Notes: generated from the sequence alone by a model not told the origin. A DNA stretch of 63,419 bases, filler included, from 6 parts of 6 records of this genome joined end to end with filler, not necessarily neighbours in it; one strand, 5' to 3'; counted from the first letter of the whole stretch, positions 14,405-61,047 are shown. A program made the numbers and translations.

Positions 14405-14405
14405 A

Positions 14406-15332: not shown

Positions 15333-15347
15333 ATAAGAGGTACTAAT

Positions 15348-16088: not shown

Positions 16089-16096
16089 GTGATTTG

Positions 16097-17230: not shown

Positions 17231-17231
17231 T

Positions 17232-18356: not shown

Positions 18357-18378
18357 TTCAGAATGAAAGGAGATAACT

Positions 18379-18957: not shown

Positions 18958-18991
18958 TAAAATCTATTAAAAAATAAAAGAGATAAATAGT

Positions 18992-23315: not shown

Positions 23316-23415
23316 NNNNNNNNNNNNNNNNNNNNNNNNNNNNNNNNNNNNNNNNNNNNTTAATTAATTAANNNNNNNNNNNNNNNNNNNNNNNNNNNNN
23401 NNNNNNNNNNNNNNN
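23316..23415. other. Artificial contig spacer
   Basis: N run with TTAATTAATTAA. Confidence 0.99.
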
Positions 23416-32645: not shown

Positions 32646-32745
32646 NNNNNNNNNNNNNNNNNNNNNNNNNNNNNNNNNNNNNNNNNNNNTTAATTAATTA
32701 ANNNNNNNNNNNNNNNNNNNNNNNNNNNNNNNNNNNNNNNNNNNN
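32646..32745. other. Artificial contig spacer
   Basis: N run with TTAATTAATTAA. Confidence 0.99.
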
Positions 32746-41867: not shown

Positions 41868-43682
<1,815 letters not shown>

Positions 43683-43782
43683 NNNNNNNNNNNNNNNNNN
43701 NNNNNNNNNNNNNNNNNNNNNNNNNNTTAATTAATTAANNNNNNNNNNNNNNNNNNNNNNNNNNNNNNNNNNNNNNNNNNNN
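43683..43782. other. Artificial contig spacer
   Basis: N run with TTAATTAATTAA. Confidence 0.99.
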
Positions 43783-44370
43783 TTCACAGGTCTTAATCCT
43801 GATGGATCTTATTTAACCAAGGAAATCGCTGTAACTGTAGATGAGCTTTCGTTTGATGTTCCTGAAGAGTGGGGATTACTTTGTGGAACAGGCGAAAAAA
43901 CCTGGGTTTGGGACGATACCCAAGCTGACAATTCAAATTCAGGAACACCTGGTCCTACCGTTTTTGGTAACGGTGGTTATCTTGGATGTTCTTCTCCGTG
44001 TTGGTGGAATGTCTCTCTTGCCGATGTTGATGCACAAGCTCCAGGTGAAGGAGATGGTGCTGAGATGGTATTTTCAGTAAGTGGTGCTTCATTAACCAAG
44101 AAATTTACAGATGGATCAACAGAGGAAGGTTCTTTTTCCTTCGATATGAGTAAAACAACCGACGATGGAAACGGTGGAATTTGGGCCAAAGGTAAATTGA
44201 ATACTAAGAATACAACGGTTTTGGCAGGAATTATTCTTAACGATAATACGGATGCTTATGAATATGATATTCTTATGTTAGATGAAGATTATTTGTCCTT
44301 GTCAGTGCCGCGTGCAGGTGTTTCTAGTGCATGGGGTGAAGCTACTTTCTGGATGTTTAAAAAGAAATAA
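43783..44370 (+). CDS. Bacteroidota surface/PUL-type protein, 5' truncated
   Basis: Frame open from contig edge: LLCGTGEKTWVWD, FGNGGY...PCWW, YEYDIL, WGEATFWMFK. Confidence 0.6.
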   Translation, partial: FTGLNPDGSYLTKEIAVTVDELSFDVPEEWGLLCGTGEKTWVWDDTQADNSNSGTPGPTVFGNGGYLGCSSPCWWNVSLADVDAQAPGEGDGAEMVFSVSGASLTKKFTDGSTEEGSFSFDMSKTTDDGNGGIWAKGKLNTKNTTVLAGIILNDNTDAYEYDILMLDEDYLSLSVPRAGVSSAWGEATFWMFKKK

Positions 44371-44393
44371 AGTATAACAACAAAAACATTACA

Positions 44394-44822
44394 ATGAAAA
44401 AAATAAAGGCTTATTTGGTAATAGTTATTTGTTCTATATCAATTTTTGTTTTTGCTAATAATGCAGAATCGAAAAAACGAAATAGTGCAATTTCGAATAA
44501 TGATATAGTAACTACAACAACTAATATTGGTCAATTTTCGTCAAGTGATGTAAGGATTGCAGTAACGGCAAATCCTGTATATACTTTTGGTGGACAATTA
44601 ACTCTCTCAGGAACAAATGAAAATTATTCGATTTCATCTAGTAATTATCATCCTGTGGTGTTCTACAATATTCCAGAAGGAACTTATACCGTTTCAGATA
44701 TATCTATGTCTAGTTGTAATGGTGCTTCAAAGGTATTTTGTAATGGGCAGGAGATTGTGAATGGTTCAAGCGTAACTTTTGTTGCGGCTAGTGGAGGATC
44801 TATACAGTTTCAATGCAATTAA
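44394..44822 (+). CDS. Small secreted hypothetical protein
   Basis: Signal peptide; Ser/Thr/Asn-rich beta-strand pattern (NIPEGTYTV). Confidence 0.6.
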   Translation: MKKIKAYLVIVICSISIFVFANNAESKKRNSAISNNDIVTTTTNIGQFSSSDVRIAVTANPVYTFGGQLTLSGTNENYSISSSNYHPVVFYNIPEGTYTVSDISMSSCNGASKVFCNGQEIVNGSSVTFVAASGGSIQFQCN

Positions 44823-44845
44823 AGCGAATAGTCTAGTTTATATTG

Positions 44846-44877
44846 AAAAGAGGGCGTTGTTTTTTGCGTCCTCTTTT
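44846..44877 (+). terminator. Intrinsic terminator
   Basis: AAAAGAGGGCG...CGTCCTCTTTT. Confidence 0.65.
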
Positions 44878-44982
44878 CTATTTTTAAGGTGCTTAATGAA
44901 AAAGATTCTTTCGCTTCATTGCATCCAGAAGCGCAGTGAGGAATCTCTTCTAAATAAATTATATACTCTAAAAAACAGTATA

Positions 44983-45582
44983 ATGCGAAATGTTTTATAT
45001 TTAATTGCTTTTTTTTTCATTCTTTCAGCTTGTTCTTCCGAGAATAACTTCCAAATAAACGGGCAACTTCCCGATAATTCGTACGATGGTGAATGGATTT
45101 ATCTGGTGCCACTTGTAAATGCTCCGGTTGAACGTGTTGATTCAACGGTTATTGAAAACGGTGCTTTTGTTTTTAATGGCAATGTTAAAGTGCCCGAAAT
45201 TTATGTAATCCGTCCCCGTCCGTTTATACGCCTATCGTTACAAGAATTGCTTGTGGTAAAAGAGCCCGGACAAATTAATGCTTATATTGGGCAACGAAGC
45301 AAAGCAAAAGGCACAGCTTTAAACGATTCGCTGCAAAGCTGGAAAGAGCAAAAGGAGGTCTGGGATGTTAAATCAAGCCTGCTTCAGCAACAGTTTACTA
45401 CTGCCGATGATTCAACAAAAGATGAATTGTTAAAACGAAAGAAGCAAATTAACACGCAAAAGAATACCTATAACTTTGAATTTGCCAAAAACAACAAAAA
45501 CAATGTAGTTGGTGAGATGGTGATTCGGTTTACTAAAGCTTCGTTTACAGATATGCAAAAAAGGGAATTGGGAATTGATTAA
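44983..45582 (+). CDS. DUF4369-like lipoprotein
   Basis: Lipobox LSAC; FQING...IYL...DSTVIENGAFVFNG...EPG...GTALND; start ATG 44983; no CxxC thioredoxin domain. Confidence 0.7.
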   Translation: MRNVLYLIAFFFILSACSSENNFQINGQLPDNSYDGEWIYLVPLVNAPVERVDSTVIENGAFVFNGNVKVPEIYVIRPRPFIRLSLQELLVVKEPGQINAYIGQRSKAKGTALNDSLQSWKEQKEVWDVKSSLLQQQFTTADDSTKDELLKRKKQINTQKNTYNFEFAKNNKNNVVGEMVIRFTKASFTDMQKRELGID

Positions 45583-45588
45583 TAAAGC

Positions 45589-47322
45589 ATGAGGAAAGAC
45601 AAAACAAATTGGCTTTTTATTACTCCTGTAGTCATTTTTATGGCGACCTACTCATTTTATCATTTTTTCTACTCTTATCACCTCTTTTTTAAAGAACAAG
45701 TTCAACTCTTCCTTTATACCCCCGATTATATTCTTTCGTATTTTAATAAACCAGCAAGTCTTTCCCGTTTATGTGGAGATTTCCTAGTTCAGTTTTTCTA
45801 CCTGCGAGGAGGTGGACCATTGGTTTTAGCTATAATCTTTTGTGTTGAATGGTTATTGCTTAGGGCAGTTCTAATAAAAAACTTCTCATCGGAAATGGCA
45901 GGTTGGTGGGCCTTAATTCCCATTGCTGCCGATTTTACTCTACATTTAAATCTTCTGCATACACCAGCAGACTCAATGGGAGTAATACTGGTTATGCTTA
46001 TATTTTTAATCCTTTCATTACACAAACATAAAACCATTAACAAGGGAATAGCCATTGTTTTGGGTATTTTGGGTTATTATTTATTAGGCAATGCTGTTTT
46101 ACTTTTGCCTTTCTTTCTTTTATTTAAAAAAGATCAGTTTAAGCCTTTGTTTGTTTTAATGGTGCTGATATTGGTGCTTCTCGTACCTTATGTTTTACGT
46201 CCTAATTTTTTACTTACACTTGAACAAACTTATTTATACCCGGCATTCACCGTAAAAAGTCTAATGCTCCCAATCTGCATCGTAATTGTATTTTCGATGG
46301 TTAGGTTTCTAAAGTCAAAGTCGGTATTTTTAATATTCGCAAAACCATTTGTTTTAGTACTTATTGTTGTTGTAGGTTTTGTTGGAATTCGATTAAACGC
46401 CAATTTCGATCGGGAAAAGATTTTGACTCTCGACAGTGAAACCTACTTTGGTAACAGCAGCAAGGTATTGCGGTATGCTGAGAAAGAGTTGATAGAAAGT
46501 CGTTTTGCAACTTACTATACCAATATGGCTCTTGCTGAAAAAGGAGAGTTGCCCGAACGGCTTTTGGAATTTTATCAACCCGGAATTTTTGGACTTTTAT
46601 TACCGGTTTCGCAGCACGAAAACTGGCAAAGCATACTTTTTAGCAATGAGCTTTTTTATCTTATAGGAGATATGAATTTTGCGCAACATTCGGCAATGCT
46701 TGGAAATACTTTTTCTCCGTATAATCGAAGCTCAAGAATGATAAAACGGCTGGCTGAAATTAATATGGTTACTAAGGATTTTGAAGGCGCTGAAAAATAC
46801 CTGAAAATGCTTACAAAAACCTTTTTCCATAAAAAATGGGCTGAAAAACGATTGGCTGAAAACAACAATGAATCAAAAAAAATATGGTTGGCTGAAAAAC
46901 GAAGCCAAATTGCCAAGACTGATGTTATTCGAACGGCTTTTGACTATATTAAATCAATTGAATTTTTGGTTCAACAAAATCCTAATAACAACGTGGCGTT
47001 AGATTACCTGTTGTGCTATCACTTGTTAAATAAAGACTTGCCAGCCTTTCAACAAGCCTACGATACCTATGCATTAAAAACAGAAAGTGTGCCTGCAAAG
47101 ATTTATGCAGAGGCATTACTTATTATTTTGTTTCGTAATAATGCTTCGGAGCAAGAATTTGAACAATACGGAATAAACCCTGAACAACTAAACAATTTTG
47201 TGAGCTATACAGAATTATTCGAAGAAAGTAAGGGGGAATTGGATAAGCTACAGAGAAAATTTGGAACCACTTTCTGGTTTTACTATCATTTTGCAACCAT
47301 GAAAGGAGGATGGGATGAATAG
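45589..47322 (+). CDS. DUF6057-like polytopic membrane protein, copy 1
   Basis: HLFFKEQVQLFL, roughly 9-10 TM segments, then TPR-like helical domain, ends GTTFWFYYHF. Confidence 0.75.
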   Translation: MRKDKTNWLFITPVVIFMATYSFYHFFYSYHLFFKEQVQLFLYTPDYILSYFNKPASLSRLCGDFLVQFFYLRGGGPLVLAIIFCVEWLLLRAVLIKNFSSEMAGWWALIPIAADFTLHLNLLHTPADSMGVILVMLIFLILSLHKHKTINKGIAIVLGILGYYLLGNAVLLLPFFLLFKKDQFKPLFVLMVLILVLLVPYVLRPNFLLTLEQTYLYPAFTVKSLMLPICIVIVFSMVRFLKSKSVFLIFAKPFVLVLIVVVGFVGIRLNANFDREKILTLDSETYFGNSSKVLRYAEKELIESRFATYYTNMALAEKGELPERLLEFYQPGIFGLLLPVSQHENWQSILFSNELFYLIGDMNFAQHSAMLGNTFSPYNRSSRMIKRLAEINMVTKDFEGAEKYLKMLTKTFFHKKWAEKRLAENNNESKKIWLAEKRSQIAKTDVIRTAFDYIKSIEFLVQQNPNNNVALDYLLCYHLLNKDLPAFQQAYDTYALKTESVPAKIYAEALLIILFRNNASEQEFEQYGINPEQLNNFVSYTELFEESKGELDKLQRKFGTTFWFYYHFATMKGGWDE

Positions 47323-48766
47323 CTATTTAAATTGTTGTTTGGGATCTCTATTGCTGTTGTTACTGTCGTGTCAATCTTCTCATAAAAATGTACAGGAAAG
47401 CTCTGATTTTCCAAAAATATTCCCTGATTACATTGATGTAACTATCCCCAAAAACATTGCACCATTAAATTTTCTATTACGTGATTCGTGCGAACAGGTA
47501 GTAGTGGAAATTATGGGTAGTGAAAAAACAATCTTGGTAAGAGGGAAACAAAAAGTTCAGGTTCCGCTAAAAAAGTGGAAAGAAATGTTGTCGGTTGGAA
47601 AGCAAAGTTTGAAAGTAACTGTAACCACCTTTAAAAATGGAAAATGGACTGCTTTTAAACCTTTTTTCTGGGAAGTTAAACCGGACCTAATTGATGGCTA
47701 CTTAAGCTACCGCTTGATTGAACCTGGATACGAGGTATGGAACAAATTGCAATTGGTGGAACGTAACATTGAAAGTTTTGAAGAACGGGTATTGGCAGAT
47801 AACAACTTAACCGAAGGAGCCTGTATGAATTGTCATATTTATGGGAACCAGGATCCAGCTCTTTCCATGTTTCATATGCGTGGTTCTAAAGGAGGAACGG
47901 TATTAAACCGCAACGGTAAACTTCGTAAAATTAATACCCGCAGCAGCGATATGATTGCCAATGCAACCTATGGAAACCTACATCCATCCGGGCAATATGG
48001 TGTATTCTCATCTAACATTGTTATTCCTGAATTACATACCTATGGTAGTGAGCGGTTGGAAGTTTACGATCGTGCTTCAGATCTTTTGGTAATCGATTTT
48101 GATAAAAATGAAGTGCTTGTAAAAGATGTGTTGAACGATACAACGGCATTCGAAACTTTTCCGGTATTTTCAGCGGATGGCAGTTGTATTTATTACTGTT
48201 CGGCACCTTATAAACCGCTGCCCGATAGTATTCGATCTTTAAAATACAGTATTCACAAAGTTGACTTTAATCCTGCAACAGGTTCGATAGGAAATAAAAT
48301 TGATACCGTATGGAATGCCAAACAACATGAGGGCTCAGCATGCCATTTAAAAACATCGCCTGATGGGAAATACTTATTATACACGGTGGCCGACTACGGA
48401 ACTTTTCCAATCTGGCATCAGGAAGCCGATTTACAAATGATACACCTCGAAACCGGAAAAATTGAAAATTTAGAGGATGTTAATGCTTTTCGATCTGATT
48501 CGTACCACAGTTGGTCGAGCAACAGTCGTTGGTTTGTTTTTGCCAGTAAGCGCGATGATGGAATTTATGGGAAGCCGTATTTTGCTTACCTCGATGAAAA
48601 TGGAAAGGCTCATAAACCATTTGTTTTACCGCAACGTGATCCGGCAAAGTACGATTTTATGTTGAAATCGTTTAACATTCCCGAACTATCGAAAGGGCAG
48701 GTTCCCTTTGATGCAATGGACATTGAAAGGTTGTATAAAAACCTGGAGGCTGAAACTGTAAACTAA
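47315..48766 (+). CDS. TolB/PD40-like beta-propeller lipoprotein with CxxCH, copy 1
   Basis: Lipobox LLSC, YRLIEPGY, CMNCH, FSADG, SPDGK, SYHSWSS, PFVLPQ. Confidence 0.8.
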   Translation: MNSYLNCCLGSLLLLLLSCQSSHKNVQESSDFPKIFPDYIDVTIPKNIAPLNFLLRDSCEQVVVEIMGSEKTILVRGKQKVQVPLKKWKEMLSVGKQSLKVTVTTFKNGKWTAFKPFFWEVKPDLIDGYLSYRLIEPGYEVWNKLQLVERNIESFEERVLADNNLTEGACMNCHIYGNQDPALSMFHMRGSKGGTVLNRNGKLRKINTRSSDMIANATYGNLHPSGQYGVFSSNIVIPELHTYGSERLEVYDRASDLLVIDFDKNEVLVKDVLNDTTAFETFPVFSADGSCIYYCSAPYKPLPDSIRSLKYSIHKVDFNPATGSIGNKIDTVWNAKQHEGSACHLKTSPDGKYLLYTVADYGTFPIWHQEADLQMIHLETGKIENLEDVNAFRSDSYHSWSSNSRWFVFASKRDDGIYGKPYFAYLDENGKAHKPFVLPQRDPAKYDFMLKSFNIPELSKGQVPFDAMDIERLYKNLEAETVN

Positions 48767-48790
48767 AAAACAAAATTTTATCTCAGGAAC

Positions 48791-50569
48791 ATGAAGCACA
48801 AGATATTTACAAGTATTTTTAGTCTGGAAAAGTTACTCCCGCTGGTGTTTGGAGCCGCTGTATTTGTTTTCTTTGGCTTTTACTACCCTTTTCATTTAAA
48901 TTACCAGGAACAATTTCAACTATTTTTATTTTCCAGCGAATATTTCCTGGGGTATATCGGACGTCCGGGGGGAGTGGCTGATTATTTGGGAACTTTTTTA
49001 ACCCAGTTTTATTTCTATTCAAAAATTGGGGCACTGGTTCTTGCCATTATGTTGGTAGTACTTCAGCAATTGGTTTATAAAATCGGTCTTAAATTAGGTG
49101 CAAAAATGCATTGGGTGCCTCTTTCGTTTATTCCTTCTGTTTTATACTGGAGTTTGCTATGCAATGAGAATTACCTGCTGGGTGGTTTGGTTGCCATGTT
49201 ATTATTAGCGTGTTTTTGTACATTTTATCTGTACCTGAAAAAAGGAACCATTCAAACCGTAGTAGGGCTGGTTTTGCTTGTTGTTTTATATTGGATGGCC
49301 GGAGGTGTTCATGTTTTCTTTGCTCTTTTTGTATTGTCATTAAAGTTTTTTGAACGAACAAAACCGGGCAAACAAGATCTGGGTCGAGCAATAGGAGTGA
49401 TGGTTATTACTTTGTTGTTGCCGTTTCTTGCGAAATATCTTGTACTTCAATATCCAATGATGAAATTCTGGATAGGTACAACTTATTTTCGTTTCCCGGT
49501 TAATGCACCAATAGCGGCTACTCTTATTGGTTCTTTAATTTTTATCCTACCTCTTTTAATGGCTGTTCTTTCAACCCAATTGAATGAAAAACGGAAAACT
49601 ATTTTAATATCCTTACAGCTTGTTGTTTTAATCGGATTTGGATCTGTTATTATTCATAAATCAGCTGACTTTTCCAAAGAAGAGGTGATGGCCTACGATT
49701 TTTATATCCGGATGAGAAAGTGGGATCGCGCTATAGCTATGGCCGATAAAAAGCATCCAACAAGTCCCTTATCAGTGGCATGTTTAAATTTGGCATTGGC
49801 AAAGCAAGACTTGTTGGGAGAGCGTATGTTTTCATATTATCAAAAAGGTATGGGAGGATTAATACCAGATTTTAAGCGCGATTTTACTATTCCGATAATG
49901 GCAGGTGAAGTGTATTACCATTTGGGGTTGATAAATACGGCTCAACGATTTGCATTTGAAGCAATGGAAGCTTTACCCGATTACCAGAAAAGTGCACGTA
50001 CAGTAAAACGACTGGCCGAAACCAATATTATTAACGGAGAATACAAATTGGCAAGAAAGTACTTGCATTTGCTTCAAAAAACCATGTATTACAAAGCTTG
50101 GGCTACGCAAGCTCTGCAAATAATGACGGATGAGGAACAAGTTGAAAGTCATATTGAGTGGGGCTGGTTGAGAAAAGCCCGGATTCAGAAAGATTTTTTG
50201 TTTAGCGAACAGGAAAAAGAAAACATGTTGGGGCAGTTGTTTACCCATAACAATAAAAATCGTATGGCTTTTGAATACCTGCTGACTAGCAGTCTCGTAA
50301 AAAAGGATCTGCAACAATTTATCAATTATTTCGCTTTATCAAATTCATTAAATTACAAGCATATTCCTAAAAACTTTCAGGAAGCTTTGGTTTATATCTG
50401 GGAAGTGACCAACAAAGATAAGAACCGGGAAATTCCTTATCCGATAAATGCGAATGTCCGGGCCAGGTTAACGGACTATAAAAAATTATATGGGCAAACT
50501 CGCGATGCACAAAAAATTCAAAGAAACCACGGTAATACTTACTGGTACTATTATCATTTCAGAAATTGA
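48791..50569 (+). CDS. DUF6057-like polytopic membrane protein, copy 2
   Basis: HLNYQEQFQLFL, PGG, TM region, KRLAE, AFEYL, GNTYWYYYHF. Confidence 0.75.
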   Translation: MKHKIFTSIFSLEKLLPLVFGAAVFVFFGFYYPFHLNYQEQFQLFLFSSEYFLGYIGRPGGVADYLGTFLTQFYFYSKIGALVLAIMLVVLQQLVYKIGLKLGAKMHWVPLSFIPSVLYWSLLCNENYLLGGLVAMLLLACFCTFYLYLKKGTIQTVVGLVLLVVLYWMAGGVHVFFALFVLSLKFFERTKPGKQDLGRAIGVMVITLLLPFLAKYLVLQYPMMKFWIGTTYFRFPVNAPIAATLIGSLIFILPLLMAVLSTQLNEKRKTILISLQLVVLIGFGSVIIHKSADFSKEEVMAYDFYIRMRKWDRAIAMADKKHPTSPLSVACLNLALAKQDLLGERMFSYYQKGMGGLIPDFKRDFTIPIMAGEVYYHLGLINTAQRFAFEAMEALPDYQKSARTVKRLAETNIINGEYKLARKYLHLLQKTMYYKAWATQALQIMTDEEQVESHIEWGWLRKARIQKDFLFSEQEKENMLGQLFTHNNKNRMAFEYLLTSSLVKKDLQQFINYFALSNSLNYKHIPKNFQEALVYIWEVTNKDKNREIPYPINANVRARLTDYKKLYGQTRDAQKIQRNHGNTYWYYYHFRN

Positions 50570-50575
50570 ACAGGT

Positions 50576-52045
50576 ATGAAATATTTTAATTCTAAAAACA
50601 TATTTTTCTTCTATGCGATAATTTTGTTGGTTTCATGCAAAACCGATATAAAATCGGACATAAAGAAAAACGTATCCCCGAATATTTTTCCTGATTATTG
50701 CGATGTAACCATTCCGTACAACATTGCCCCCTTAAATTTTAAAATGAAAGATGGAGCAGAAGCAATTGCGGCCCGAATAGAAAGTTCTAACGGGAGTTCT
50801 GTTCTGGTAAAGGGAAAAAAGCAAGTGGTAATTCCTCTAAAACAATGGATAAACCTGTTGGATGAATCAAAGGGGCAGGCACTAACGTTTACCGTATTCG
50901 CCCAAAACAATGGCAAATGGACCGAATATTTACCTTTTAATGTATTTGTAAGCAACGATGCCATAGATTATGGAATAGCATACCGTTTAATTGCCCCGGG
51001 CTACGAGATATACAGTAAGATGGGGATTTATCAGCGCGAACTTTCTACCTTTAAACAAGATGCTATTATTGAAAATACTTTGTTAACCGGTAGTTGTGTG
51101 AATTGTCATTCGTTTCGTTTAACCAACCCGGATGATATGAGTTTACACATCAGGGGGAAAAAAGGAGGAACTGTTTTGATGAGCAATGGTGAGGTTAAGC
51201 TGTTAAATACAAAAACTCCAAAAACCATATCGAATTTTGTTTACCCATACTGGCATCCAAACGGCAACTATGTGGCTTATTCTGTAAATAAAACAAAACA
51301 GGTATTTCACGAAACAAAAGAAAAGAGGGTGGAAGTAGTGGATGCAGCATCTGATGTGGTGGTGTACGATGTAAGAAACAATCAAACCATTTATTGCGAT
51401 CAGTTAATGACCGAAAACGAGTTTCAAACGTTTCCAAGTTTCTCGGCAGATGGTAAGAAACTGATCTTCTGTGTTGCCGATGCAAAACGAATTCCTTTTG
51501 AATACAAAGAGGTACACTATAACCTTTGCAGCATCGATTTTGACGCTTCTGCCGGAGCCTTTGGCGAAAAAGTAGATACATTATTTAACGCTTCTGTCCT
51601 GGGGAAAAGTGTAACATTTCCGCGACCATCACCCGATGGTAAATACATTATGTTTACCCTTGTTGATTATGGTAATTTCTCGATTTGGCACAAAGAAGCC
51701 GATTTGTTTCTGCTTGATGTGGAAAAAGGGGAGGTTAAGGCAATGGAAGCAGCCAATAGTAAAGATACTGAAAGCTACCATTCATGGTCGTCCAACTCGC
51801 GCTGGTGCGTATTTAGTAGCCGTAGAATTAATGGTTTGTATACCCGTCCTTATTTTGTGCACATCGACAAAAATGGAAATGTTGGCAAACCTTTTCTGTT
51901 GCCTCAGAAAAATCCAGATTATTACGAAAACTTGTTGTATTCGTATAATATTCCTGAATTTATAAATAAGAAAGTAGAGTTAGATGTACGGCAAGTGGAG
52001 AAACTGGCTAACACTTCAGGCACTAATGTAACGCAACGAGAATAG
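50576..52045 (+). CDS. TolB/PD40-like beta-propeller lipoprotein with CxxCH, copy 2
   Basis: Lipobox LVSC, YRLIAPGY, CVNCH, WHPNG, SPDGK, SYHSWSS, PFLLPQ. Confidence 0.8.
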   Translation: MKYFNSKNIFFFYAIILLVSCKTDIKSDIKKNVSPNIFPDYCDVTIPYNIAPLNFKMKDGAEAIAARIESSNGSSVLVKGKKQVVIPLKQWINLLDESKGQALTFTVFAQNNGKWTEYLPFNVFVSNDAIDYGIAYRLIAPGYEIYSKMGIYQRELSTFKQDAIIENTLLTGSCVNCHSFRLTNPDDMSLHIRGKKGGTVLMSNGEVKLLNTKTPKTISNFVYPYWHPNGNYVAYSVNKTKQVFHETKEKRVEVVDAASDVVVYDVRNNQTIYCDQLMTENEFQTFPSFSADGKKLIFCVADAKRIPFEYKEVHYNLCSIDFDASAGAFGEKVDTLFNASVLGKSVTFPRPSPDGKYIMFTLVDYGNFSIWHKEADLFLLDVEKGEVKAMEAANSKDTESYHSWSSNSRWCVFSSRRINGLYTRPYFVHIDKNGNVGKPFLLPQKNPDYYENLLYSYNIPEFINKKVELDVRQVEKLANTSGTNVTQRE

Positions 52046-52049
52046 AAAA

Positions 52050-53837
52050 ATGAACGATAATAGCAATAAAAATATCTCGAGGTTTGCTAACCTGTTTTTC
52101 TTAGTAATACTGTTTGTGTTTTGGCGTTTCTTCTATGTCAATCACTTGGTTCAAAAAGAACAAATGCAAATGTTCTTGTGGAGCTGGGATTATTTTATTC
52201 TTCATTTAAAGCAGCCGGGTGGTTTGGTAATTTATTTAAGTGAATTTGTAATCCAGTTTTTTCTGAACAAATGGTTGGCTGCCGGTTTTATGTCGCTTCT
52301 TCTATATTCTTTGGCTTTAAGCATTAATAAGGTATATATTAAGTTGAAGAATCGCAATTTTATTGTATTGTCGTTTATCCCGGCTATTACGTATCATTTT
52401 TTTCTTTTTGATAAATATTTCCAGCTATCAGGGCTTGTTGCTGTAATTCTTTCCATTGGTTCTCTTGTTATTTATTTGAACATTAAGCGAAGAGTTTTTG
52501 CGGGAATTCTACTTCTTTTACTCAATTACTGGTTGCTGGGAGGTGCCTATATTCTTTATACACTATCAGTAATAATTATTGAATTATTACTGTTGTTCAA
52601 GAAAAATGAAAAAATAAGTGTATTGCCCCGAATAGTGCCAACCCTTATCGTTTACGTGCTTCTGGGGCTACTTATTCCGTTTTTTTCCTACCAGCTGCTT
52701 TTAACCGAAAACCTTTTGGAAAGCTATGTCTCGAGAGCATTTTATCAGATTAGCCTTATTTTTCCTACTCAACTGTACCTGTTCCTGGGGGGTATTCCTT
52801 TGCTTTTTGTAATTGCCGGTTTTGTTTCTTTTACAAGGAAAGAAAAGCAATATCTTTTTACTCTTCTATTTTCGATAGGTGTTTTGGCACTTTTTGTAAT
52901 TGGTTCGGTAATATTGCCCAATTACAATGAAGAAAGAGAGATGCAATTTGACAACCTGGTCGTTCAAAAGGAATGGAATAAGGTAATTTCTTTAGCTGAA
53001 AAAAAAGTACCCGTCGGTAAAGTTGAGAAAACAGCACTTTCGCTGGCGTTGGCTCAAACCGGACAAATGACTTCAAGGCTGTTTGAGTTTAATCCATCAC
53101 TTGATAACTTCTTTATTACTTTTAATCGTCAGGGGATGGCACCTTTACTGGCCAACGAACCTTATTTTTATTTGGGACTTACCAATTTTTCAAAAATGTT
53201 GTGTATTGAATCAATTGAATCGAAACCTGATGGTAAAATGCCGGTACGTTCTGTTAAACGATTTGTGGAAAATTGTATTATCGACGGTCAATATAAGGTT
53301 GCTACACGGTATTTATGGTATGTTGAAAAAACGCTGTTTTACCGTAAATGGGCAAAAGATGCGCGAACTTGCCTAAACAACAACGATAAAGTTGAACAGC
53401 ACCCGTTATGGGGTGCATTGCGAAGTAAGAAAACTATGGATGACTATTATTTTCAAAGCGAAAGAAATGACGTTGCTTTGATTACATTGTTGCGCAGTAA
53501 TCCTCAAAACAAAACTGCATACGAATACCTGATGAGCTGGTATTTATTGCAGAAAGATTTTGATGAGTTTTTGAAATATTTACCCTTATCAAAATCGATG
53601 GATTATGAAAATTTTCCCTTGGTTTTTCAGGAAGCATTGGCCTATGTGAAAACCTTATTTGATGAGGTGCCGGATGGATTAGAACAGTTTCCTGTTTCTG
53701 CTCAAGTGCAACAAAACTTAAACCGTTATGCCAGGGTTTTTCAACAGGGAGGAAGTAATAACCCGACTGAGATGAAAAAACAATTTGGGCATACGTATTG
53801 GTATTATGTACATTTTATTGAAACTGAGAATGAATAG
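52050..53837 (+). CDS. DUF6057-like polytopic membrane protein, copy 3
   Basis: HLVQKEQMQMFL, PGG, TM region, AYEYL, GHTYWYYVHF. Confidence 0.75.
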   Translation: MNDNSNKNISRFANLFFLVILFVFWRFFYVNHLVQKEQMQMFLWSWDYFILHLKQPGGLVIYLSEFVIQFFLNKWLAAGFMSLLLYSLALSINKVYIKLKNRNFIVLSFIPAITYHFFLFDKYFQLSGLVAVILSIGSLVIYLNIKRRVFAGILLLLLNYWLLGGAYILYTLSVIIIELLLLFKKNEKISVLPRIVPTLIVYVLLGLLIPFFSYQLLLTENLLESYVSRAFYQISLIFPTQLYLFLGGIPLLFVIAGFVSFTRKEKQYLFTLLFSIGVLALFVIGSVILPNYNEEREMQFDNLVVQKEWNKVISLAEKKVPVGKVEKTALSLALAQTGQMTSRLFEFNPSLDNFFITFNRQGMAPLLANEPYFYLGLTNFSKMLCIESIESKPDGKMPVRSVKRFVENCIIDGQYKVATRYLWYVEKTLFYRKWAKDARTCLNNNDKVEQHPLWGALRSKKTMDDYYFQSERNDVALITLLRSNPQNKTAYEYLMSWYLLQKDFDEFLKYLPLSKSMDYENFPLVFQEALAYVKTLFDEVPDGLEQFPVSAQVQQNLNRYARVFQQGGSNNPTEMKKQFGHTYWYYVHFIETENE

Positions 53838-55305
53838 GATAATTTACTTGCTGTGGATTCTGATTATTGCCCTTGTGAGTTGTAAGGAACAAAAACCTGA
53901 GCATGCAATTAATGTAAATAAATTACCGGATGTTTTTCCCGTAAATTTTAATGCAACAATTCCATTTAATACTGCACCCTTAAATTTTAAGCTGAAAGAT
54001 GATTGCAAAAAGCTATTTGTTTTGGCTAAGGGCGAGAAATCTACGCTGGAAAAAGTTTTCAATGGCAATAAAACAAATTGGAACCTTAATGACTGGTCAG
54101 CTTTTTTGGAAGAAAACAAAGATGATAGTATCTCATTTACCGTGTATTCAAAGGTAAATGAAGAATGGAGGCAGTATAAACCTTTTAGCTATTTTATTTC
54201 GCCCGACCCTATAGACAGCTACCTGATTTACCGATTGATAACGCCGGGATACCAAACCTGGAACAAAATGGGATTGTATCAACGTAATCTGACCAATTTT
54301 GAAGAAATAACCATTCTTGATAACAAAATAATGCCTCATTCCTGTATGAATTGCCATACTCTTTCGGCTAATAACCCCGATAATATGGTTTTTCATATTC
54401 GCGAAAATAAGTCCGGTACTTTTTTAATAAAAGATGGGAAACTGCAAAAACTCCTTTCAAAAAAAGAAACTCCGTTTAAAAGTGTTTCTTTCCCGTCGTG
54501 GCATCCTTCTGAAAAATACATTGCCTTTTCCATTAATAAAGTGCGACAGGTATTTCCTGCACAAGGGACAGAACGGGCTCATGCTTTTGATATGGGGTCT
54601 GATATGGTGATTTACGATGTGGAAAAGAAAGAATACATCATTTCACCAGTGCTTTATAAGGAAGAATCGTTCGAAGCTTTTCCTTGTTTTTCTCCCGATG
54701 GAAAGAGCCTTTATTACATAACTGCTCCGGCAGCTCCAATGCCTAAGGAGATCCGGAACATTCAATACAGTTTATGTCGTACTGATTTTAACTCGGAGAC
54801 CGGTGAAATAGGAAAAGATGTGGATACCTTAATTACACCCAATGTTACAGGAAAAAGCCTAACAATGCCCCGTGTTTCCCCAAACGGGAAGCATATTTTA
54901 CTTACTTTGTCAGATTACGGGAACTTTCCGGCTTATAACGAAGAGGCTGATTTGTATTTGTATACCATTGCCGACTCTTCATTAACAGAGTTAGAAACAT
55001 TAAACAGCAACCAGGTTGAAAGCTATCACTCGTGGTCTTCAACCGGGCGGTGGGTGGTTTTTAGCAGCCGCCGTATGGATGGTTTGTTTATGAATGTTTA
55101 TGTGGCTCATGTTAACGAGAATGGTCGTTTTGATAAACCTTTTCTTTTGCCACAAAAAGATCCCGATTTTCATCAATCTTTTCTTCTCTCGTTTAATTTA
55201 CCCGAGTTTGCCATTAAACCGGTTCCGGTAAGTCCTCAACAGATTGAACGTTTGGCTTCAAAAGCAGATCGTTCTTCAAACCAAAATCAACTAACAACCC
55301 ACTGA
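53830..55305 (+). CDS. TolB/PD40-like beta-propeller lipoprotein with CxxCH, copy 3
   Basis: Start ATG 53830 (ATGAATAG overlap); lipobox LVSC, YRLITPGY, CMNCH, WHPSE, SYHSWSS, PFLLPQ. Confidence 0.8.
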   Translation: MNRIIYLLWILIIALVSCKEQKPEHAINVNKLPDVFPVNFNATIPFNTAPLNFKLKDDCKKLFVLAKGEKSTLEKVFNGNKTNWNLNDWSAFLEENKDDSISFTVYSKVNEEWRQYKPFSYFISPDPIDSYLIYRLITPGYQTWNKMGLYQRNLTNFEEITILDNKIMPHSCMNCHTLSANNPDNMVFHIRENKSGTFLIKDGKLQKLLSKKETPFKSVSFPSWHPSEKYIAFSINKVRQVFPAQGTERAHAFDMGSDMVIYDVEKKEYIISPVLYKEESFEAFPCFSPDGKSLYYITAPAAPMPKEIRNIQYSLCRTDFNSETGEIGKDVDTLITPNVTGKSLTMPRVSPNGKHILLTLSDYGNFPAYNEEADLYLYTIADSSLTELETLNSNQVESYHSWSSTGRWVVFSSRRMDGLFMNVYVAHVNENGRFDKPFLLPQKDPDFHQSFLLSFNLPEFAIKPVPVSPQQIERLASKADRSSNQNQLTTH

Positions 55306-55519
55306 ATTTCTAGTGTTAAGTATTCAATTTTTATACAAGCAAATCTAGAAGGTGGTGTTTTTAGTCCAAACTTTTATCTCATACACCACCATTAGCAGGT
55401 CTTCTTATTTTACTATAGCATAAGTTTTATAATGAATTAGAAGAGGTGTTAAATTTGTAGGGCAAACGCTTTAATCCCTGAATTAAGTTAATTTGTATGC
55501 CATCATGCACCTTACTTTT

Positions 55520-56371
55520 CTATTTATTTAAAACATATCTTTTCATCCAGTTTTCTGCTAATCCGGGCCAAATTTCCGCAGCAGGATTACCTTTTCGCAA
55601 TCCGTACCCATGTCCACCTTCAGGCATAAAATGAAACTCAACAGGAATATTGTTTACTTGTAATGCATCAACAAGTACAAGGCTACTGTGTCCAGCCTTG
55701 TCGTCTGCAGTGCCAAAAAGAAACATGGGCGGTGGATTATTGTCCACTAATAACTCCTGAGTTAAAGTTCTGTAAGGACCTTGCGAAAAATAGGCACCGT
55801 AGATCAGCACTGCAAAATCGGGACGACAGGAAATAGTATCCATTTCATCGACACGTGGATAAGTTTCTTTATTATAGCGGGTACTAACACGAGCACTCAG
55901 GCTACCACCGGCTGAAAAACCCAGAACACCCAGTTTGGAATCTGCAAGACTCCATTTTGCAGCGTTCCCCCGAACAATTCTCATGGCACGTTGGATGTCA
56001 TATAAAGCTGCCAATTTTTTATTTGGAACACGGTATTGTAAAACAAATGCAGTATACCCCAGTTTTGTTAGCCATTCGGCTACTTCATATCCTTCCAGGT
56101 CCATAGCAAGTATTCTGTAACCACCTCCTGGACAAATGATTACTCCAGCACCATTTCTTATGGATTCTTTAGGCTCATAAACAATAAGTGCCGGATTTGT
56201 AACATCAGTTAAACGAATAACATTTTTACTCGTATCCGGAGTTTGCACGGGATCATGTTTCGGCTCAGTTTCGCAAGGAACATCACCTGGCCATAAATAT
56301 ATTGTATTCTTTTGGGCATAATTAAATACCGAAATGAGTACTAGAACTGTTGTGACGAAAGAAAATTTCAT
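55520..56371 (-). CDS. Secreted alpha/beta hydrolase (carbohydrate esterase-like)
   Basis: CPGGGY, GFSAGG, RPDF, GGHGYG; signal peptide. Confidence 0.85.
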   Translation of the reverse strand: MKFSFVTTVLVLISVFNYAQKNTIYLWPGDVPCETEPKHDPVQTPDTSKNVIRLTDVTNPALIVYEPKESIRNGAGVIICPGGGYRILAMDLEGYEVAEWLTKLGYTAFVLQYRVPNKKLAALYDIQRAMRIVRGNAAKWSLADSKLGVLGFSAGGSLSARVSTRYNKETYPRVDEMDTISCRPDFAVLIYGAYFSQGPYRTLTQELLVDNNPPPMFLFGTADDKAGHSSLVLVDALQVNNIPVEFHFMPEGGHGYGLRKGNPAAEIWPGLAENWMKRYVLNK

Positions 56372-56741
56372 AGTTGGTTTATTTTATCTGTTACTAAAAG
56401 TATTCTAAAAGTCTTGACCAAATGAACTCTGTAGTCGAACCACTTATAAGATACTACAAAATAGATATTTTTCTTTTTGTTAAACAAAATTCAAAAAACT
56501 ATTTCACAAAGCAGTATCGTTTGGTCAAGAATGGGTGAGGAACAAGTCGGCTTGTACCTTCTGGATGGATTCAAAGTGCATCCCTTATTCTTGAATCTGG
56601 TTTGATTGATTGTAAGATTAGCAGATCAAAAGTATAACACAGAGTTTAAATATCCACAAAATGGAAAGATGAGTTATGGACACCGTATGGTAATCTAAAA
56701 TGGGTGTTTTTGTGCCATTTTTTTGCATTTCTCCTAAAAAG

Positions 56742-56776
56742 AAAAGCGCCTAAATCCCTGAACTTAAGCGCTTTTT
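56742..56776. terminator. Inverted repeat, possible terminator
   Basis: AAAAGCGC...GCGCTTTT near the contig end. Confidence 0.4.
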
Positions 56777-56793
56777 GTTGTTGTTTGTTTTCA

Positions 56794-56893
56794 NNNNNNN
56801 NNNNNNNNNNNNNNNNNNNNNNNNNNNNNNNNNNNNNTTAATTAATTAANNNNNNNNNNNNNNNNNNNNNNNNNNNNNNNNNNNNNNNNNNNN
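56794..56893. other. Artificial contig spacer
   Basis: N run with TTAATTAATTAA. Confidence 0.99.
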
Positions 56894-57273: not shown

Positions 57274-58629
57274 CTAGATATTAAAAAAAAGTTTAACTAA
57301 ATTGAAATAAACCAGCAAAGACATTACATCAATAATAGTTGTTAGTAACGGACTTGCCATTAAAGCAGGATCAAGTTTTACACTTTTTACCGCAATTGGA
57401 AGTATCCCACCGACAATTTTTGACATTATTATCGTAAACATCATACTTAAAGATACCATGATTGATATCTGCATCTTATCCTGTCTTCCTACTAAAGCTA
57501 TCTCAAGATAATAAAGTCTAAAGAAATTTATTACAGCAAGCACTATTCCTACTAATATACTTGTCCTTACCTCTCTCCAGATCACTTTAAAGATATCATT
57601 TAGCTTTACATTCCCTAGTGACAGATCTCTTATTATCAGAGCTGATACCTGAGCTCCTGCATTACCTGAGGTTCCACTCAGTAGAGGAATAAAGCTCGAT
57701 AGAACCGTAAGCTGTACTAAGATTGATTCATATTTACTGATCACGGCAGAAGTAAGCGAAGCTGAAATCATTAGTATCGCAAGCCACGGAATTCTCTTTT
57801 TTGCCATTTCAATAGGCCCTACTTCAAGATAGTTCTCTTCTAAAGGAGTAATGGCCGCCATCTTTTGGATATCTTCTGTATTTTCTTCTTCAATTACATC
57901 TACGATATCATCAATTGTGATAATTCCTGTTAGTCTGTTTTCTTTATCGATTACCGGCATAACAAGTAAATCATATTTTTTAAATTTCTCAGCGATCATT
58001 TCCTGATCATCTGTTGTATGTACTGCAACAATATCCTCGTCTGCAATATCAAGTACTTTTGTTTCTTTGGCAGATAGTATCAAATCTTTCAGCGAGACTG
58101 CACCTAAGAGCTTTCTCGTCTTATCAGTGATAAAACAAGTGTAGATAGTCTCTTTCTCTTCTCCTACCGCTCTAATGTGTTCCAGAGCCGCTTCTACAGT
58201 CATATCTTTCTTAAGCGAAAGATACTCTATAGTCATTATACTCCCTGCAGAGTCCTCAGGGTACTTTAAAAATTGATTAATTATAACTCTATTTTCTTGA
58301 GTCGTACTTCTGATTATTCTCTTAACTAAATTGGCAGGCATCTCTTCGATCATATCAATGATATCATCCATGAACAACTCATCAACAAGTTCTCTCATCT
58401 CGATATCACTAAATGCTCTGATTAAAGCCTCCTGATCATCAGGTTCAAGATAAGTAAACACCTCTGCAGCTTCATCTTTTGGTAAAATTCGATATATTAA
58501 TAATGCATCTTTTGTACCTAATAGTTTTAAGATTTCACTGACATTAACCGCGTTTAATGTTTCTAGTTCCGTTTTTAATTCTAAATATTTCTTCTGAGAC
58601 AATAACTCCTCGAATAATTTGATTTCCAT
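57274..58629 (-). CDS. mgtE: Magnesium transporter MgtE
   Basis: YPEDSAGSIMT, CBS pair, KRIPWL, GNAGAQ, DPALMASPLLTTIID. Confidence 0.95.
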   Translation of the reverse strand: MEIKLFEELLSQKKYLELKTELETLNAVNVSEILKLLGTKDALLIYRILPKDEAAEVFTYLEPDDQEALIRAFSDIEMRELVDELFMDDIIDMIEEMPANLVKRIIRSTTQENRVIINQFLKYPEDSAGSIMTIEYLSLKKDMTVEAALEHIRAVGEEKETIYTCFITDKTRKLLGAVSLKDLILSAKETKVLDIADEDIVAVHTTDDQEMIAEKFKKYDLLVMPVIDKENRLTGIITIDDIVDVIEEENTEDIQKMAAITPLEENYLEVGPIEMAKKRIPWLAILMISASLTSAVISKYESILVQLTVLSSFIPLLSGTSGNAGAQVSALIIRDLSLGNVKLNDIFKVIWREVRTSILVGIVLAVINFFRLYYLEIALVGRQDKMQISIMVSLSMMFTIIMSKIVGGILPIAVKSVKLDPALMASPLLTTIIDVMSLLVYFNLVKLFFNI

Positions 58630-58901: not shown

Positions 58902-61025
58902 TTAAAATTTAAATAATTTTTTAGCTTCTTCTTCTAATTTCTTTTCTAGTTCTTTTTGTTTTTTCTCTTCTTCAGCCTTTATTTTTGCTTCTTCTTCAGC
59001 TTTTTTCTTTTCAAGCTCCAATCTTACTTTTTCCTCTTCGGCTTTTATTTTAGCTTCCAATTCTTTTTGAGCTTTTTCTTTCTCGGCTTGTATTCTGGCT
59101 TCTTCAGCTTTTATTTTCGCCTCTAACTCTTTTCTGGCTTGCTCTTCTGCATTTTTTAGCTTTTTATCCTTCTCATTATCTAATTTATCTAGTTCTTCGT
59201 TAAACTTATCTTCAACTTCAGAGATGCCTTTAAAGCTCTCTACAGCTTTTCTTTGATCTTCAGACAGAAGATCTCCGGTTCTCTTCTCAAGATCGTTAAC
59301 ATCCGCCAATAACGAGGCTCTGTATGCTTCAATCTTTAGATTCACCTCTTTTTTGACTTTCTCTTCAGCTTTTTTCAACTCTTCTTTATAAACATCATCC
59401 AATTTATCTGAGAAAAGGTCAGTTAAGTTTGATTTAAGGATAAATTTATTATCTTCATATCCCATATTTAGAGTAAGTGTATCAATATCAGCAACTACTC
59501 CTTCAACCACCTTTTGTGTAATCTCATCACCTGTATCGCCAGGCTTAGCAAATTCAATATTAAAAATCTCAACATTAAGCATCAGACTAAACACACCATG
59601 ATCCATAGTCACATGTGATTCAGCTACTGCATCACTTTTTTTCATCTTTGCAAAACCAAGTGACTCATCTCTAAGAACAATTCCATCTTGATTAATTTCA
59701 ACTTTTTTCAGATTCGCATCTCCTCTAAAATCGATTATAGAATCAAGAGTTGTAAGTTTTTTATCTGCAATATTAGTAAGTGAAATAACTATCGGGTTAC
59801 CTGTTCTGTTTTGATTATCTGTAATATCTGTTATAACTCCATCAAATTCAGCACTATTCTGGAATACTTTAACTGTTGTCTTTTTAATCCATAATCTAGG
59901 CAGTTCAGGCATAGATTCATTTTTAGCCTTTTCTAATTCTTCTGCGCTTAATTCTTTTTTCTCTCCAAAAATACCGGTAATTTTATTATAAGTATCTGTT
60001 AATTTGAATATAAGAGTTGATGCTTTGCCTCCAAGTAATCTTTGAGTAAGCGCTTCCAATTGCTCTCTATTCATATCCCCAACAGCTTTAATATTATTTA
60101 GATCATCTTCAACTGACTTAGCCAGATCATTTTTAATTGCTGTAAGTTCACTTATATCTTTATCAAAATTTTTCTTATCTTTATCGATGTCATCAACGAT
60201 ATCTCTTCCATCATCAACTACATCTTCGATTTCGTCTTTCTTTTCTTCTAATCTTTTTAATTCCTTTTCAAAATTTTTAAAACTTTCAACATCTTTTATA
60301 TCATGAAAAAGTGAAACTAAGTTTGAAGTATCTAAATCGATATCATTAACATCTGTTTCAAGTTGTTTTATTCTATCGTCATAAGCTCTTTTAGTAACCA
60401 GATTATTCCAGTACTCCTCTTTTTCCTCTACTTTTTCTTCAGCAGCTTCGAACTCTTCTTGAAGTTTAATATCAAACTCCTTTTCCAGATTTTCAGTAAA
60501 ATTTTGATCATCGAAATCATCAAAAGCTAAGGCTTCCTCAGTTTTTTCATCAACTATTCCACCAAAATAATCTTTAACCTCTCTCGAAAATGCAGATTCC
60601 TCTTTTTCCTCTTTCACTTGTTCAACTTCAGTTTCTTTTGGTTTTAACTCATCAGGTAACTCACCTGATTCAGCTCTATCTGTACCAAGTAAAACTTCAC
60701 CAACATTTAACTCTTCAATTAGAAATTTACCTGCAAGCAAAGGTCTTGGTACCATTTTGAAGTTAGCATTATTTATTTCATATGCATTTTTCATGTAATC
60801 ATTTTTATCTGCAACTTGTAATCGATCCCATGTTACATCAAGAGTAAATAAAGGATTTTGCAGTCCTTCTATCTCTACTACAGCACCATTTGCAGCACTT
60901 CCTTTTAATTCAACAATCGCCTTAATTATCTGAATCCTCATTGCATATATAGCCGTAACTACCAATACAACTAATGCTATAACAATTGTTATATTTCTAA
61001 TAAACTTCTTAAAAAACTTCTTCAT
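58902..61025 (-). CDS. TIGR03545-like (AsmA-related) membrane-anchored protein
   Basis: N-terminal TM, ANGAVVEI, LQVAD...KN, GTDRAESG, LPRLWIKK, long coiled coils. Confidence 0.65.
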   Translation of the reverse strand: MKKFFKKFIRNITIVIALVVLVVTAIYAMRIQIIKAIVELKGSAANGAVVEIEGLQNPLFTLDVTWDRLQVADKNDYMKNAYEINNANFKMVPRPLLAGKFLIEELNVGEVLLGTDRAESGELPDELKPKETEVEQVKEEKEESAFSREVKDYFGGIVDEKTEEALAFDDFDDQNFTENLEKEFDIKLQEEFEAAEEKVEEKEEYWNNLVTKRAYDDRIKQLETDVNDIDLDTSNLVSLFHDIKDVESFKNFEKELKRLEEKKDEIEDVVDDGRDIVDDIDKDKKNFDKDISELTAIKNDLAKSVEDDLNNIKAVGDMNREQLEALTQRLLGGKASTLIFKLTDTYNKITGIFGEKKELSAEELEKAKNESMPELPRLWIKKTTVKVFQNSAEFDGVITDITDNQNRTGNPIVISLTNIADKKLTTLDSIIDFRGDANLKKVEINQDGIVLRDESLGFAKMKKSDAVAESHVTMDHGVFSLMLNVEIFNIEFAKPGDTGDEITQKVVEGVVADIDTLTLNMGYEDNKFILKSNLTDLFSDKLDDVYKEELKKAEEKVKKEVNLKIEAYRASLLADVNDLEKRTGDLLSEDQRKAVESFKGISEVEDKFNEELDKLDNEKDKKLKNAEEQARKELEAKIKAEEARIQAEKEKAQKELEAKIKAEEEKVRLELEKKKAEEEAKIKAEEEKKQKELEKKLEEEAKKLFKF

Positions 61026-61047
61026 CTCCGCCTCCTCTTTTCTTACT

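Follow-up and report, generated by a model that had tools for sequence, protein, structure and literature searches.

Within the 63,419-nucleotide stretch of DNA that we analyzed (the window), six co-directional open reading frames (ORFs) on the + strand, spanning 45589-55305, make up three consecutive gene pairs. Each pair encodes a DUF6057 membrane protein (M) followed by a PD40-propeller lipoprotein (L). The first pair consists of M1 (45589-47322, +, 577 aa), placed in DUF6057 and in paralogue type 1 by Pfam and tree, and L1 (47315-48766, +, 483 aa), a TolB-like propeller lipoprotein of type 1 with the motif CMNCH, whose start overlaps the M1 stop by 8 nt. It is followed by M2 (48791-50569, +, 592 aa), a type 2 protein identified by Pfam and a structure model, and by the propeller lipoprotein L2 (50576-52045, +, 489 aa), identified in the same two ways, with CVNCH at residues 174-178. 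The last pair is M3 (52050-53837, +, 595 aa), of type 3 by Pfam and tree, and L3 (53830-55305, +, 491 aa from an ATG), a type 3 propeller lipoprotein with CMNCH whose start again overlaps the preceding stop by 8 nt. The ORF call for L3 reaches further upstream, to a TTG at 53785. Both overlaps, at 47315 and 53830, read ATGAATAG, and the remaining gaps are 24, 6, and 4 nt.

A Pfam scan matched all three M proteins to PF19529 (DUF6057), with E-values of 6e-129 for M1, 1e-179 for M2, and 9e-131 for M3. The corresponding scores were 431.9, 599.1, and 438.0 bits against a gathering threshold of 29.8, and profile positions 4-569 were covered. For L1, L2, and L3, the same scan returned only PD40 matches. 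Identity among the paralogues is 24-30% for M and 40-42% for L. Every L copy carries a signal peptide and a lipobox; the lipobox Cys, YRLIxPGY, CxNCH, HxR, DYGxF, EADL, SYHSWSS, and PFxLPQ are invariant in L1-L3, as are HLxxxEQxQ(L/M)FL and GxT(Y/F)WxYxHF in M1-M3. The best homologues are 69% identical to M2 and 80% identical to L2, and the named matches of this pair come from Draconibacterium, Maribellus, and Prolixibacteraceae, where they are labelled "DUF6057 family protein" and "TolB family protein." An Atlas database look-up returned solely PD40- or TolB-named Bacteroidota clusters. The homologues also bear the precomputed Pfam accessions PF26549 and PF26550, which our own Pfam scan did not report for L. 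A preliminary description of this DNA had listed three diverged pairs with these overlaps, short gaps, and shared motifs, and had held that such pairs are annotated only as DUF6057 and TolB-like. The ORF coordinates and junctions, the Pfam assignments, the invariance of every listed motif, and the labels of the homologues all agree with it.

The two genes stay together and have diversified as a pair

To place the array among its relatives, we used a pattern scan of one genome per species, which gave 374 stretches encoding DUF6057 relatives, and kept the best 80 loci. Because the scan was seeded with type 2 sequences, the resulting census of arrays is biased. Across these loci, L directly follows M for 145 of the 155 full-length M genes, with six more M genes at a contig edge and four lacking an L, and 144 of the 147 L genes are preceded by M. 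This adjacency spans at least nine named families, from Prolixibacteraceae to Prevotellaceae. Most loci hold more than one full M gene (one in 22 loci, two in 42, three in 15, and four in a single locus). Orphan M genes end the arrays of loci L053 and L057 (~10-11.8 kb in each) and L079 (0.5-2.4 kb), where genes on the opposite strand follow and no L is present.

FastTree trees of M and L, built from 146 complete pairs, indicate that the partners have diversified in step. The M type equals the L type in 142 of these pairs (52 of type 1, 78 of type 2, and 12 of type 3), and the remaining four combine a type 2 M with a type 3 L. The type 1 clade comprises the identical 52 pairs in both trees, with support of 98 for M and 99 for L. 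Distances among the M proteins also track those among the L proteins, with a Mantel r of 0.89 that 0 of 999 permutations reached and that species relatedness explains in part. The pair duplicated as a unit long ago, and each of the three resulting types has kept its own partner.

Among 77 typed arrays, the order 1-2 occurs in 31 and the order 1-2-3 in 11, the latter mostly in Prolixibacteraceae. In the trees, each paralogue of the window lies nearest the same-position gene of Draconibacterium and Maribellus and not its neighbors in the window, and the array is therefore an ordinary 1-2-3 array of Prolixibacteraceae. The preliminary description had spoken of a triplicated module. There are indeed three copies in a row, but on tree evidence the arrangement is an old, conserved one and not the product of a local triplication. 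The synteny and the matching trees that it had proposed looking for are both present across the 80 loci.

Of 401 genomes drawn evenly from the class, 3 were found to carry full-length DUF6057, as were 22 of 201 genomes sampled from the order and 0 of 14 control genomes, Bacteroides thetaiotaomicron among them. Carriers include gut Parabacteroides and Prevotella as well as rumen and sediment Bacteroidales. A profile search of 1.84 billion cluster representatives returned 2283 proteins at E <= 1e-30; the best 150 of these measure only 375-677 aa, so none of those 150 is fused to L. A dedicated search for fused M-L or other longer forms likewise found none, which is weak evidence according to the tool itself. 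An apparent fusion to L in locus L077, an 849-aa ORF, was rejected as an artefact of an N run in a scaffold gap. Outside its array, the Draconibacterium isolate G001, from which locus L001 comes, carries further DUF6057 genes on contig C4 (132313-134028 and 833351-835084). With five DUF6057 matches in all, it illustrates that a single genome can hold several loci.

M resembles GT-C membrane enzymes and carries a predicted periplasmic TPR domain

The structure model of M2 was of good quality, with a predicted local distance difference test score (pLDDT) of 88.8 and a predicted template modeling score (pTM) of 0.86. From the model helices and the positive-inside rule, M2 is predicted to have nine transmembrane (TM) helices, an N-terminus inside the cell, and a periplasmic segment comprising residues 292-592. 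Its short Lys/Arg-rich loops consist of an N-terminal KxK followed by KIGLKLGAK, KK, ERTKPGKQDLGR, and EKRK. In the model, residues ~5-297 form a GT-C (glycosyltransferase C)-like membrane module and residues ~292-592 a periplasmic tetratricopeptide repeat (TPR) domain. We also weighed whether M might be a sensor or regulator, but cytoplasmic loops of just 4-12 residues led us to reject this.

The resemblance to GT-C proteins comes from a wide (exhaustive) VIA-align search with the M2 model. The best match was Pmt4 (9e61_A), with a Z of 12.5 over 269 residues at a root-mean-square deviation (rmsd) of 5.4. It was followed by Pmt1/2 (6p2r_A, Z 12.0), STT3 (6s7t_A, Z 10.3), ArnT (5f15_A, Z 9.3), ALG12 (9s6t_A, Z 9.0), and AglB (3waj_A, Z 8.9). 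No other membrane-protein family appeared over residues ~5-297 among the 50 best matches listed. Residues 292-453 and beyond aligned with TPR proteins at Z ~10. A search of PDB sequences with M gave no match. At the level of profiles, three Bacteroidia proteins that pass the PMT_2 cut-off (L081, L083, and L084) match the DUF6057 profile at positions 71-223, with E-values of 2e-6 to 2.5e-4. Taken on the model and these comparisons, the membrane module of M probably has a GT-C-derived fold.

One residue, a candidate for the catalytic acid, stands out in this module. Glu40 of M2, within HLxxxEQxQ, lies nine residues past TM1 and is Glu in 112 of the 114 alignment rows that cover the column, the other two having His; a further 32 rows lost the column when the alignment was trimmed at its N-terminal end. 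GT-C enzymes carry a catalytic acid right after TM1, and those of the PMT, STT3, and ArnT type use polyprenyl-phosphate-linked sugars. That M is itself an active transferase is possible, and we hold it tentatively, with more doubt than confidence.

L is a TolB-like propeller with an invariant CxxCH

The model of L2 (pLDDT 89.3) shows a lipoprotein whose lipobox is followed by a beta-rich N-domain (residues ~30-128) and then by a six-bladed PD40 propeller. TolB was the best fold match by a wide margin (1c5k_A, Z 26.0, rmsd 3.2, 269 residues; Foldseek E 1e-13), and BtuG2 (8ptf_A) was also among the matches, with a Z of 15.3. None of the three copies reached the 343-bit cut-off of the TolB equivalog TIGR02800, as L2 scored 33.9 bits, L3 scored 37.6 bits, and L1 gave no match. 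A search of PDB sequences with L yielded only E-values of 0.004 or higher.

Across 146 L proteins, some 45 positions reach a conservation of 97% or more, and these include Cys174, Asn176, Cys177, His178, Arg193, His227, Asp256, and His402. A CxxCH occurs in 147 of 147 full-length L proteins and always takes the form C-[MVILF]-N-C-H. Judged by sequence, this C-x-N-C-H is a haem c motif.

M and L are predicted to form a cognate complex

We predicted the complex of full-length M2 with residues 129-489 of L2. The interface score, ipSAE, was 0.86 (0.86-0.87 over three runs), compared with 0.00 for the best of three controls. For scale, 51 of 78 solved complexes score at least this high, as do 2 of 108 mismatched pairs. 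The runs have at least 90% of their contacts in common, and the partner pLDDT is 88. On M2, the contacts involve the first periplasmic loop (residues 48 and 50), the TM7-TM8 loop (215-236), and the TPR domain (361-479), so that all contacting residues fall in segments that are periplasmic by the positive-inside rule. On L2, they include the region of the PGYE motif (140-148), residues 163-171 just before CxNCH, and a flexible loop at 243-253.

The M side of this interface is also distinctive in the alignment. Its conservation is 0.504 compared with 0.426 elsewhere in M (Mann-Whitney p 8e-4), and it contains a larger share of positions at which types 1 and 2 differ (4/44 vs. 8/489, Fisher p 0.012). 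The model supports binding of M and L, and the type-specific interface residues speak for partner specificity, although they are uninformative on substrate and hence on the suggestion of the preliminary description that the three paralogues handle different substrates. The preliminary description had proposed that each pair forms a dedicated complex of membrane protein and lipoprotein. This is well supported by the synteny (145/155), the match of types (142/146), and an interface predicted for the cognate M2-L2 pair at 0.86 against 0.00. Since the predicted partner of L lies in the inner membrane, L itself is more likely to be in the periplasm than exposed at the surface.

The array usually follows SusC- and SusD-like genes

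Clustering of the flanking ORFs in the 80 loci, together with Pfam, gave a usual order in which a SusC-like gene, a SusD-like gene, a gene for a 278-aa lipoprotein of no family, and one for a DUF4369 lipoprotein precede the pairs. The SusC and SusD genes of the related loci were recognized by Plug/CarboxypepD_reg and SusD matches in Pfam. Both lie upstream in 44 of the 48 loci that have at least 6.5 kb of upstream DNA. The 278-aa family, which has no Pfam match, follows SusD in these loci and is found upstream in 58 of 80. Of the arrays that open with a type 1 pair, 44 of 46 have DUF4369 upstream, compared with 2 of 21 among those that open with type 2 and have upstream room; DUF4369 therefore belongs to the type 1 module. 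At the other end, a chorismatase-like gene (FkbO/Hyg5 N-domain plus RidA/L-PSP) lies 3' of the last pair in 32 of 80 loci. It begins a median of 17 nt past the last pair and is mostly on the same strand, as at 16531-17853 of locus L008; the window has no such gene.

Upstream of the array in the window, the 3' part of a gene of the 278-aa lipoprotein family is found at 43783-44370 (+), truncated where the contig begins; a tblastn comparison gave 63% identity with residues 92-275 of the protein from L001. Between it and the DUF4369 gene lies an ORF of 142 aa (44394-44822, +) that has a signal-peptide-like start, belongs to no family, and was not seen among the 80 related loci. Downstream of this ORF and just upstream of the DUF4369 gene is a terminator-like hairpin of 13 pairs followed by a T-run (44845-44878, +). 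The promoter and terminator scan as a whole was not above chance (14 vs. 10.4 +/- 3.4 in shuffles), and Bacteroidota promoter types are outside its coverage. The DUF4369 lipoprotein gene itself occupies 44983-45582 (+; PF14289, E 1e-13; 54% identity to the L001 gene), with its start, read from the translation, at the Met before an ILSAC lipobox. Past the array, on the same contig, a convergent gene at 55520-56371 (-) encodes an alpha/beta-hydrolase esterase (BD-FAE/Abhydrolase_3), which is not a conserved neighbor of the array in the 80 loci.

The preliminary description had taken a PUL-type gene and this esterase as a hint of glycan modification or utilization. The window's own neighbors do not carry that hint, since the esterase is not conserved, but related loci do, through SusC/SusD upstream in 44 of 48 and through GH97 or GH26 genes that adjoin the loci of two isolates. 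In Dysgonomonas macrotermitis, GH97 and an AraC regulator precede SusC, and the locus of Parabacteroides sp. ZJ-118 lacks SusCD and combines DUF4369 and two pairs with a GH26 gene.

The reach of the window at this point is set by its construction. Five 100-nt linkers of the form N44-TTAATTAATTAA-N44 lie at 13035-13134, 23316-23415, 32646-32745, 43683-43782, and 56794-56893. The six pieces they join have, in order, GC contents of 0.53, 0.36, 0.51, 0.53, 0.37, and 0.31. With values that switch between about 0.52 and 0.31-0.37, the pieces may derive from more than one organism. The array sits on the piece 43783-56793, which starts after the fourth of these artificial contig joins and stops before the fifth. 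Gene neighborhood across a linker is meaningless. Because the linkers split the window into six contigs, SecY and adk upstream (41868-43734) and MgtE downstream (57274-58629) are on other contigs and are not real neighbors of the array. The array's contig begins inside the 278-aa-family gene, past where SusD would lie, and SusCD is thus visible in the related loci and beyond the window's reach. A genomic-island reading of the GC break at 43.7 kb was dropped, as the break is an assembly join.

Two other contigs of the window hold features apart from the array. A separate low-GC contig carries a metal-uptake operon (13694-20873, +) with genes for a DtxR-type iron-dependent repressor, a ZnuA-like binding protein, an ABC ATPase, two ABC-3 permeases, a PEMT-like membrane methyltransferase, a second ABC ATPase, and a SufBD-like protein. 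The last contig (GC 0.31) has, beside a GAF-GGDEF diguanylate cyclase gene, ORFs of 707 aa and 222 aa without a Pfam match (58902-61716, -, and 61945-63372, -).

Interpretation and alternatives

The explanation that we favor, held tentatively and at a little short of even chances, is that M is an enzyme resembling lipid-linked-sugar transferases and that L is its dedicated propeller subunit. Each pair would encode a 1:1 envelope complex. M would be the inner-membrane protein, with nine TM helices, a GT-C module, and a C-terminal periplasmic TPR domain of ~300 residues. L, a lipoprotein built of a TolB-like N-domain followed by a six-bladed propeller, would dock on its own M at the TPR domain and periplasmic loops. 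At the periplasmic face, M may transfer a sugar, or a similar lipid-linked group, by way of the near-invariant Glu-Gln of its first periplasmic loop, and L could be a dedicated subunit that presents the acceptor to M or could be the acceptor itself. More speculatively, loop 243-253 of L is a candidate acceptor, as it contains Ser/Thr in all three copies of the window and would sit in a conserved groove of M in the model. The array is normally the tail of a SusC/SusD outer-membrane import operon, and the complex may be linked to the cargo of SusCD.

Several results weigh against this explanation. The Z of ~12 that suggests a GT-C fold is within the range that helical proteins can give, by the tool's own warning. 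Foldseek found no match to the M2 model in the PDB at E <= 1e-3, and the membrane halves of M1-M3 have no match to PMT (PF02366), PMT_2 (PF13231), or another GT-C Pfam family even at E 10. When the M alignment was compared with four PMT_2 proteins by hhalign, the probability was 14.5% (E 0.0019, 104 columns). The membrane module of M has few invariant charged residues, most of the invariant charges being in the TPR domain, and the conserved locus lacks, across the 80 loci, a GT2 gene for a polyprenyl-phosphate sugar donor. On the side of L, transfer by M leaves the invariant C-x-N-C-H unaccounted for. The N-domain of L was left out of the folded complex, conservation at the L interface does not exceed that at the remaining L positions (0.598 vs. 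0.599), and the enrichment of this interface for type-specific positions is not significant (4/35 vs. 17/326, p 0.13). The four M genes without an adjacent L also fit poorly with an obligate partnership.

The motif of L is the starting point of a different explanation, which we consider unlikely. Here, L would be a c-type haem lipoprotein, with haem attached by CcsBA at C-x-N-C-H, and the pair would be a periplasmic redox or haem-dependent module in which M is a dock or maturation factor and not a glycosyltransferase. The strict retention of the motif in all 147 full-length L proteins speaks for a haem site, and His178, His227, His402, and several Arg residues are also conserved in at least 97% of 146 L proteins. 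One database record labels a homologue "cytochrome c-binding protein," and residues 163-171, just before the motif, fall in the predicted M-L interface. A CcsA-type gene (PF01578) is present in 29 of 30 DUF6057-bearing genomes checked, but so it is in 151 of the 179 same-order genomes that lack DUF6057 (172/201 overall), and this co-occurrence hardly discriminates. Genome G442 (2.4 Mb, completeness not established) has two intact M-L pairs at locus L087 (G442:C1:745000-755811), one with CMNCH and one with CVNCH, and no PF01578 (Cytochrom_C_asm) match over the cut-off. If this assembly is complete, attachment of haem by CcsBA is argued against, because CxNCH pairs occur there without PF01578. 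No cytochrome family of Pfam or NCBIfam matches L, and the fold matches of L2 include no haem-binding propeller. Haem c sites are usually in a helical turn, and the model places the motif in a propeller beta strand (174-181), a weak point given that the model has no cofactor. Asn within CxxCH is not required for haem attachment, so its invariance in L goes beyond what haem would need. An explanation that draws on both ideas would have a single c-type haem held covalently inside the TolB-like propeller L, docked on a GT-C-derived M. L would then be a new kind of haem protein, and the pair a hitherto unknown envelope enzyme that depends on haem and acts on a glycan either linked to lipid or imported by SusCD; one operon would combine three co-evolved specificities. 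We judge it improbable.

The resemblance of L to TolB, by far its best fold match (Z 26.0), could instead mean that the pair is a non-catalytic envelope scaffold or receptor like Tol-Pal/CpoB. M would then be an inner-membrane TPR protein that holds an outer-membrane-anchored L, and L would span the periplasm under SusCD and capture its cargo or hand it on. We find this quite unlikely, although the TPR domain is predicted to grip the propeller, SusC/SusD are linked upstream, and the fold matches include BtuG2 (8ptf_A, Z 15.3), which is a propeller lipoprotein belonging to a TonB-dependent transporter. The scores of L against the TolB equivalog are 34-38 bits for a cut-off of 343, with no match for L1; no tolQRA or pal genes are in the conserved neighborhood of the 80 loci; and some arrays, such as locus L052, are without any SusCD. 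A scaffold would also leave unexplained why a GT-C-like module keeps a near-invariant Glu-Gln in its first periplasmic loop, and why L has ~45 positions conserved in at least 97% of sequences (Cys, His, Asp, and Arg among them), which resemble an active or ligand site. Finally, the pairs could be tandem duplicates without functional coupling of M and L, their adjacency reflecting inherited gene order alone. Close relatives do share gene order by descent, and the congruence of the trees (Mantel r 0.89) is partly species relatedness. Still, adjacency over at least nine named families, start and stop codons that overlap or lie 4-24 nt apart, the agreement of paralogue types in 142 of 146 pairs, and a predicted complex at 0.86 vs. 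0.00 for controls make this highly improbable.

The transferase-like explanation, if true, would add an inner-membrane or periplasmic step to SusCD loci, for which surface binding, hydrolysis, and import are usually taken as the whole explanation. The DUF6057 family is large and has no described function, and this explanation names residues that may matter, namely Glu40 of M and Cys174, Cys177, and His178 of L2. If the CxxCH of L binds haem, the propeller would be an unprecedented place for a c-type haem.

Comparison with known systems

No paper naming DUF6057 or PF19529 was found in the literature searched, and broader searches, which covered titles and abstract openings, found none on the pair. 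What appears to be new here is the predicted GT-C fold of DUF6057 joined to a TPR domain, the predicted cognate complex on the periplasm-facing parts of M, and the SusC-SusD-lipoprotein-DUF4369-(pair)n operon.

Among known propeller proteins, L is closest to TolB (TIGR02800; 1c5k, 7mx5, 2hqs), with which it shares an N-terminal domain followed by a six-bladed PD40 propeller. CpoB/YbgF is the TPR-bearing envelope protein of the Tol-Pal comparison, and by analogy the predicted hold of M on L recalls it. Unlike TolB, however, L is a lipoprotein with an invariant C-x-N-C-H and many other invariant polar residues, falls ~300 bits short of the TolB model, and has no Tol-Pal genes nearby. L also compares with BtuG2 (8ptf) at TonB-dependent/SusCD transporters in being a propeller lipoprotein encoded in a SusC/SusD operon, but it has an inner-membrane partner gene, which BtuG is not known to have. 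With c-type cytochromes of the CcsBA (System II) kind, L has in common its export, a strictly conserved CxxCH, and hosts that nearly all carry a CcsA-type gene (29/30). It differs from them in lacking a cytochrome domain, in the modeled position of its motif in a propeller strand, and in having one host without a detectable CcsA.

For M, the nearest systems are the protein O-mannosyltransferases TMTC1-4 and PMT (GT39; Pmt1-Pmt2 and Pmt4; 6p2r and 9e61). M resembles them in its multi-pass GT-C fold (Z 12.0-12.5 over ~269 residues) and in a conserved acidic residue soon after TM1, in the first extracytoplasmic loop. PMTs act as dimers of paralogues, and M types 1 and 2 co-occur here (31 arrays of order 1-2 and 11 of order 1-2-3, of 77). 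With TMTCs, M further shares an extracytoplasmic C-terminal TPR domain, a layout known for these proteins (PMC11292533). Unlike either, M has no Pfam PMT or PMT_2 match, nine predicted TM helices, and no MIR domain, and it sits in a SusCD operon with a propeller lipoprotein as its obligate partner. We regard M as a GT-C enzyme-like protein whose obligate partner has no precedent.

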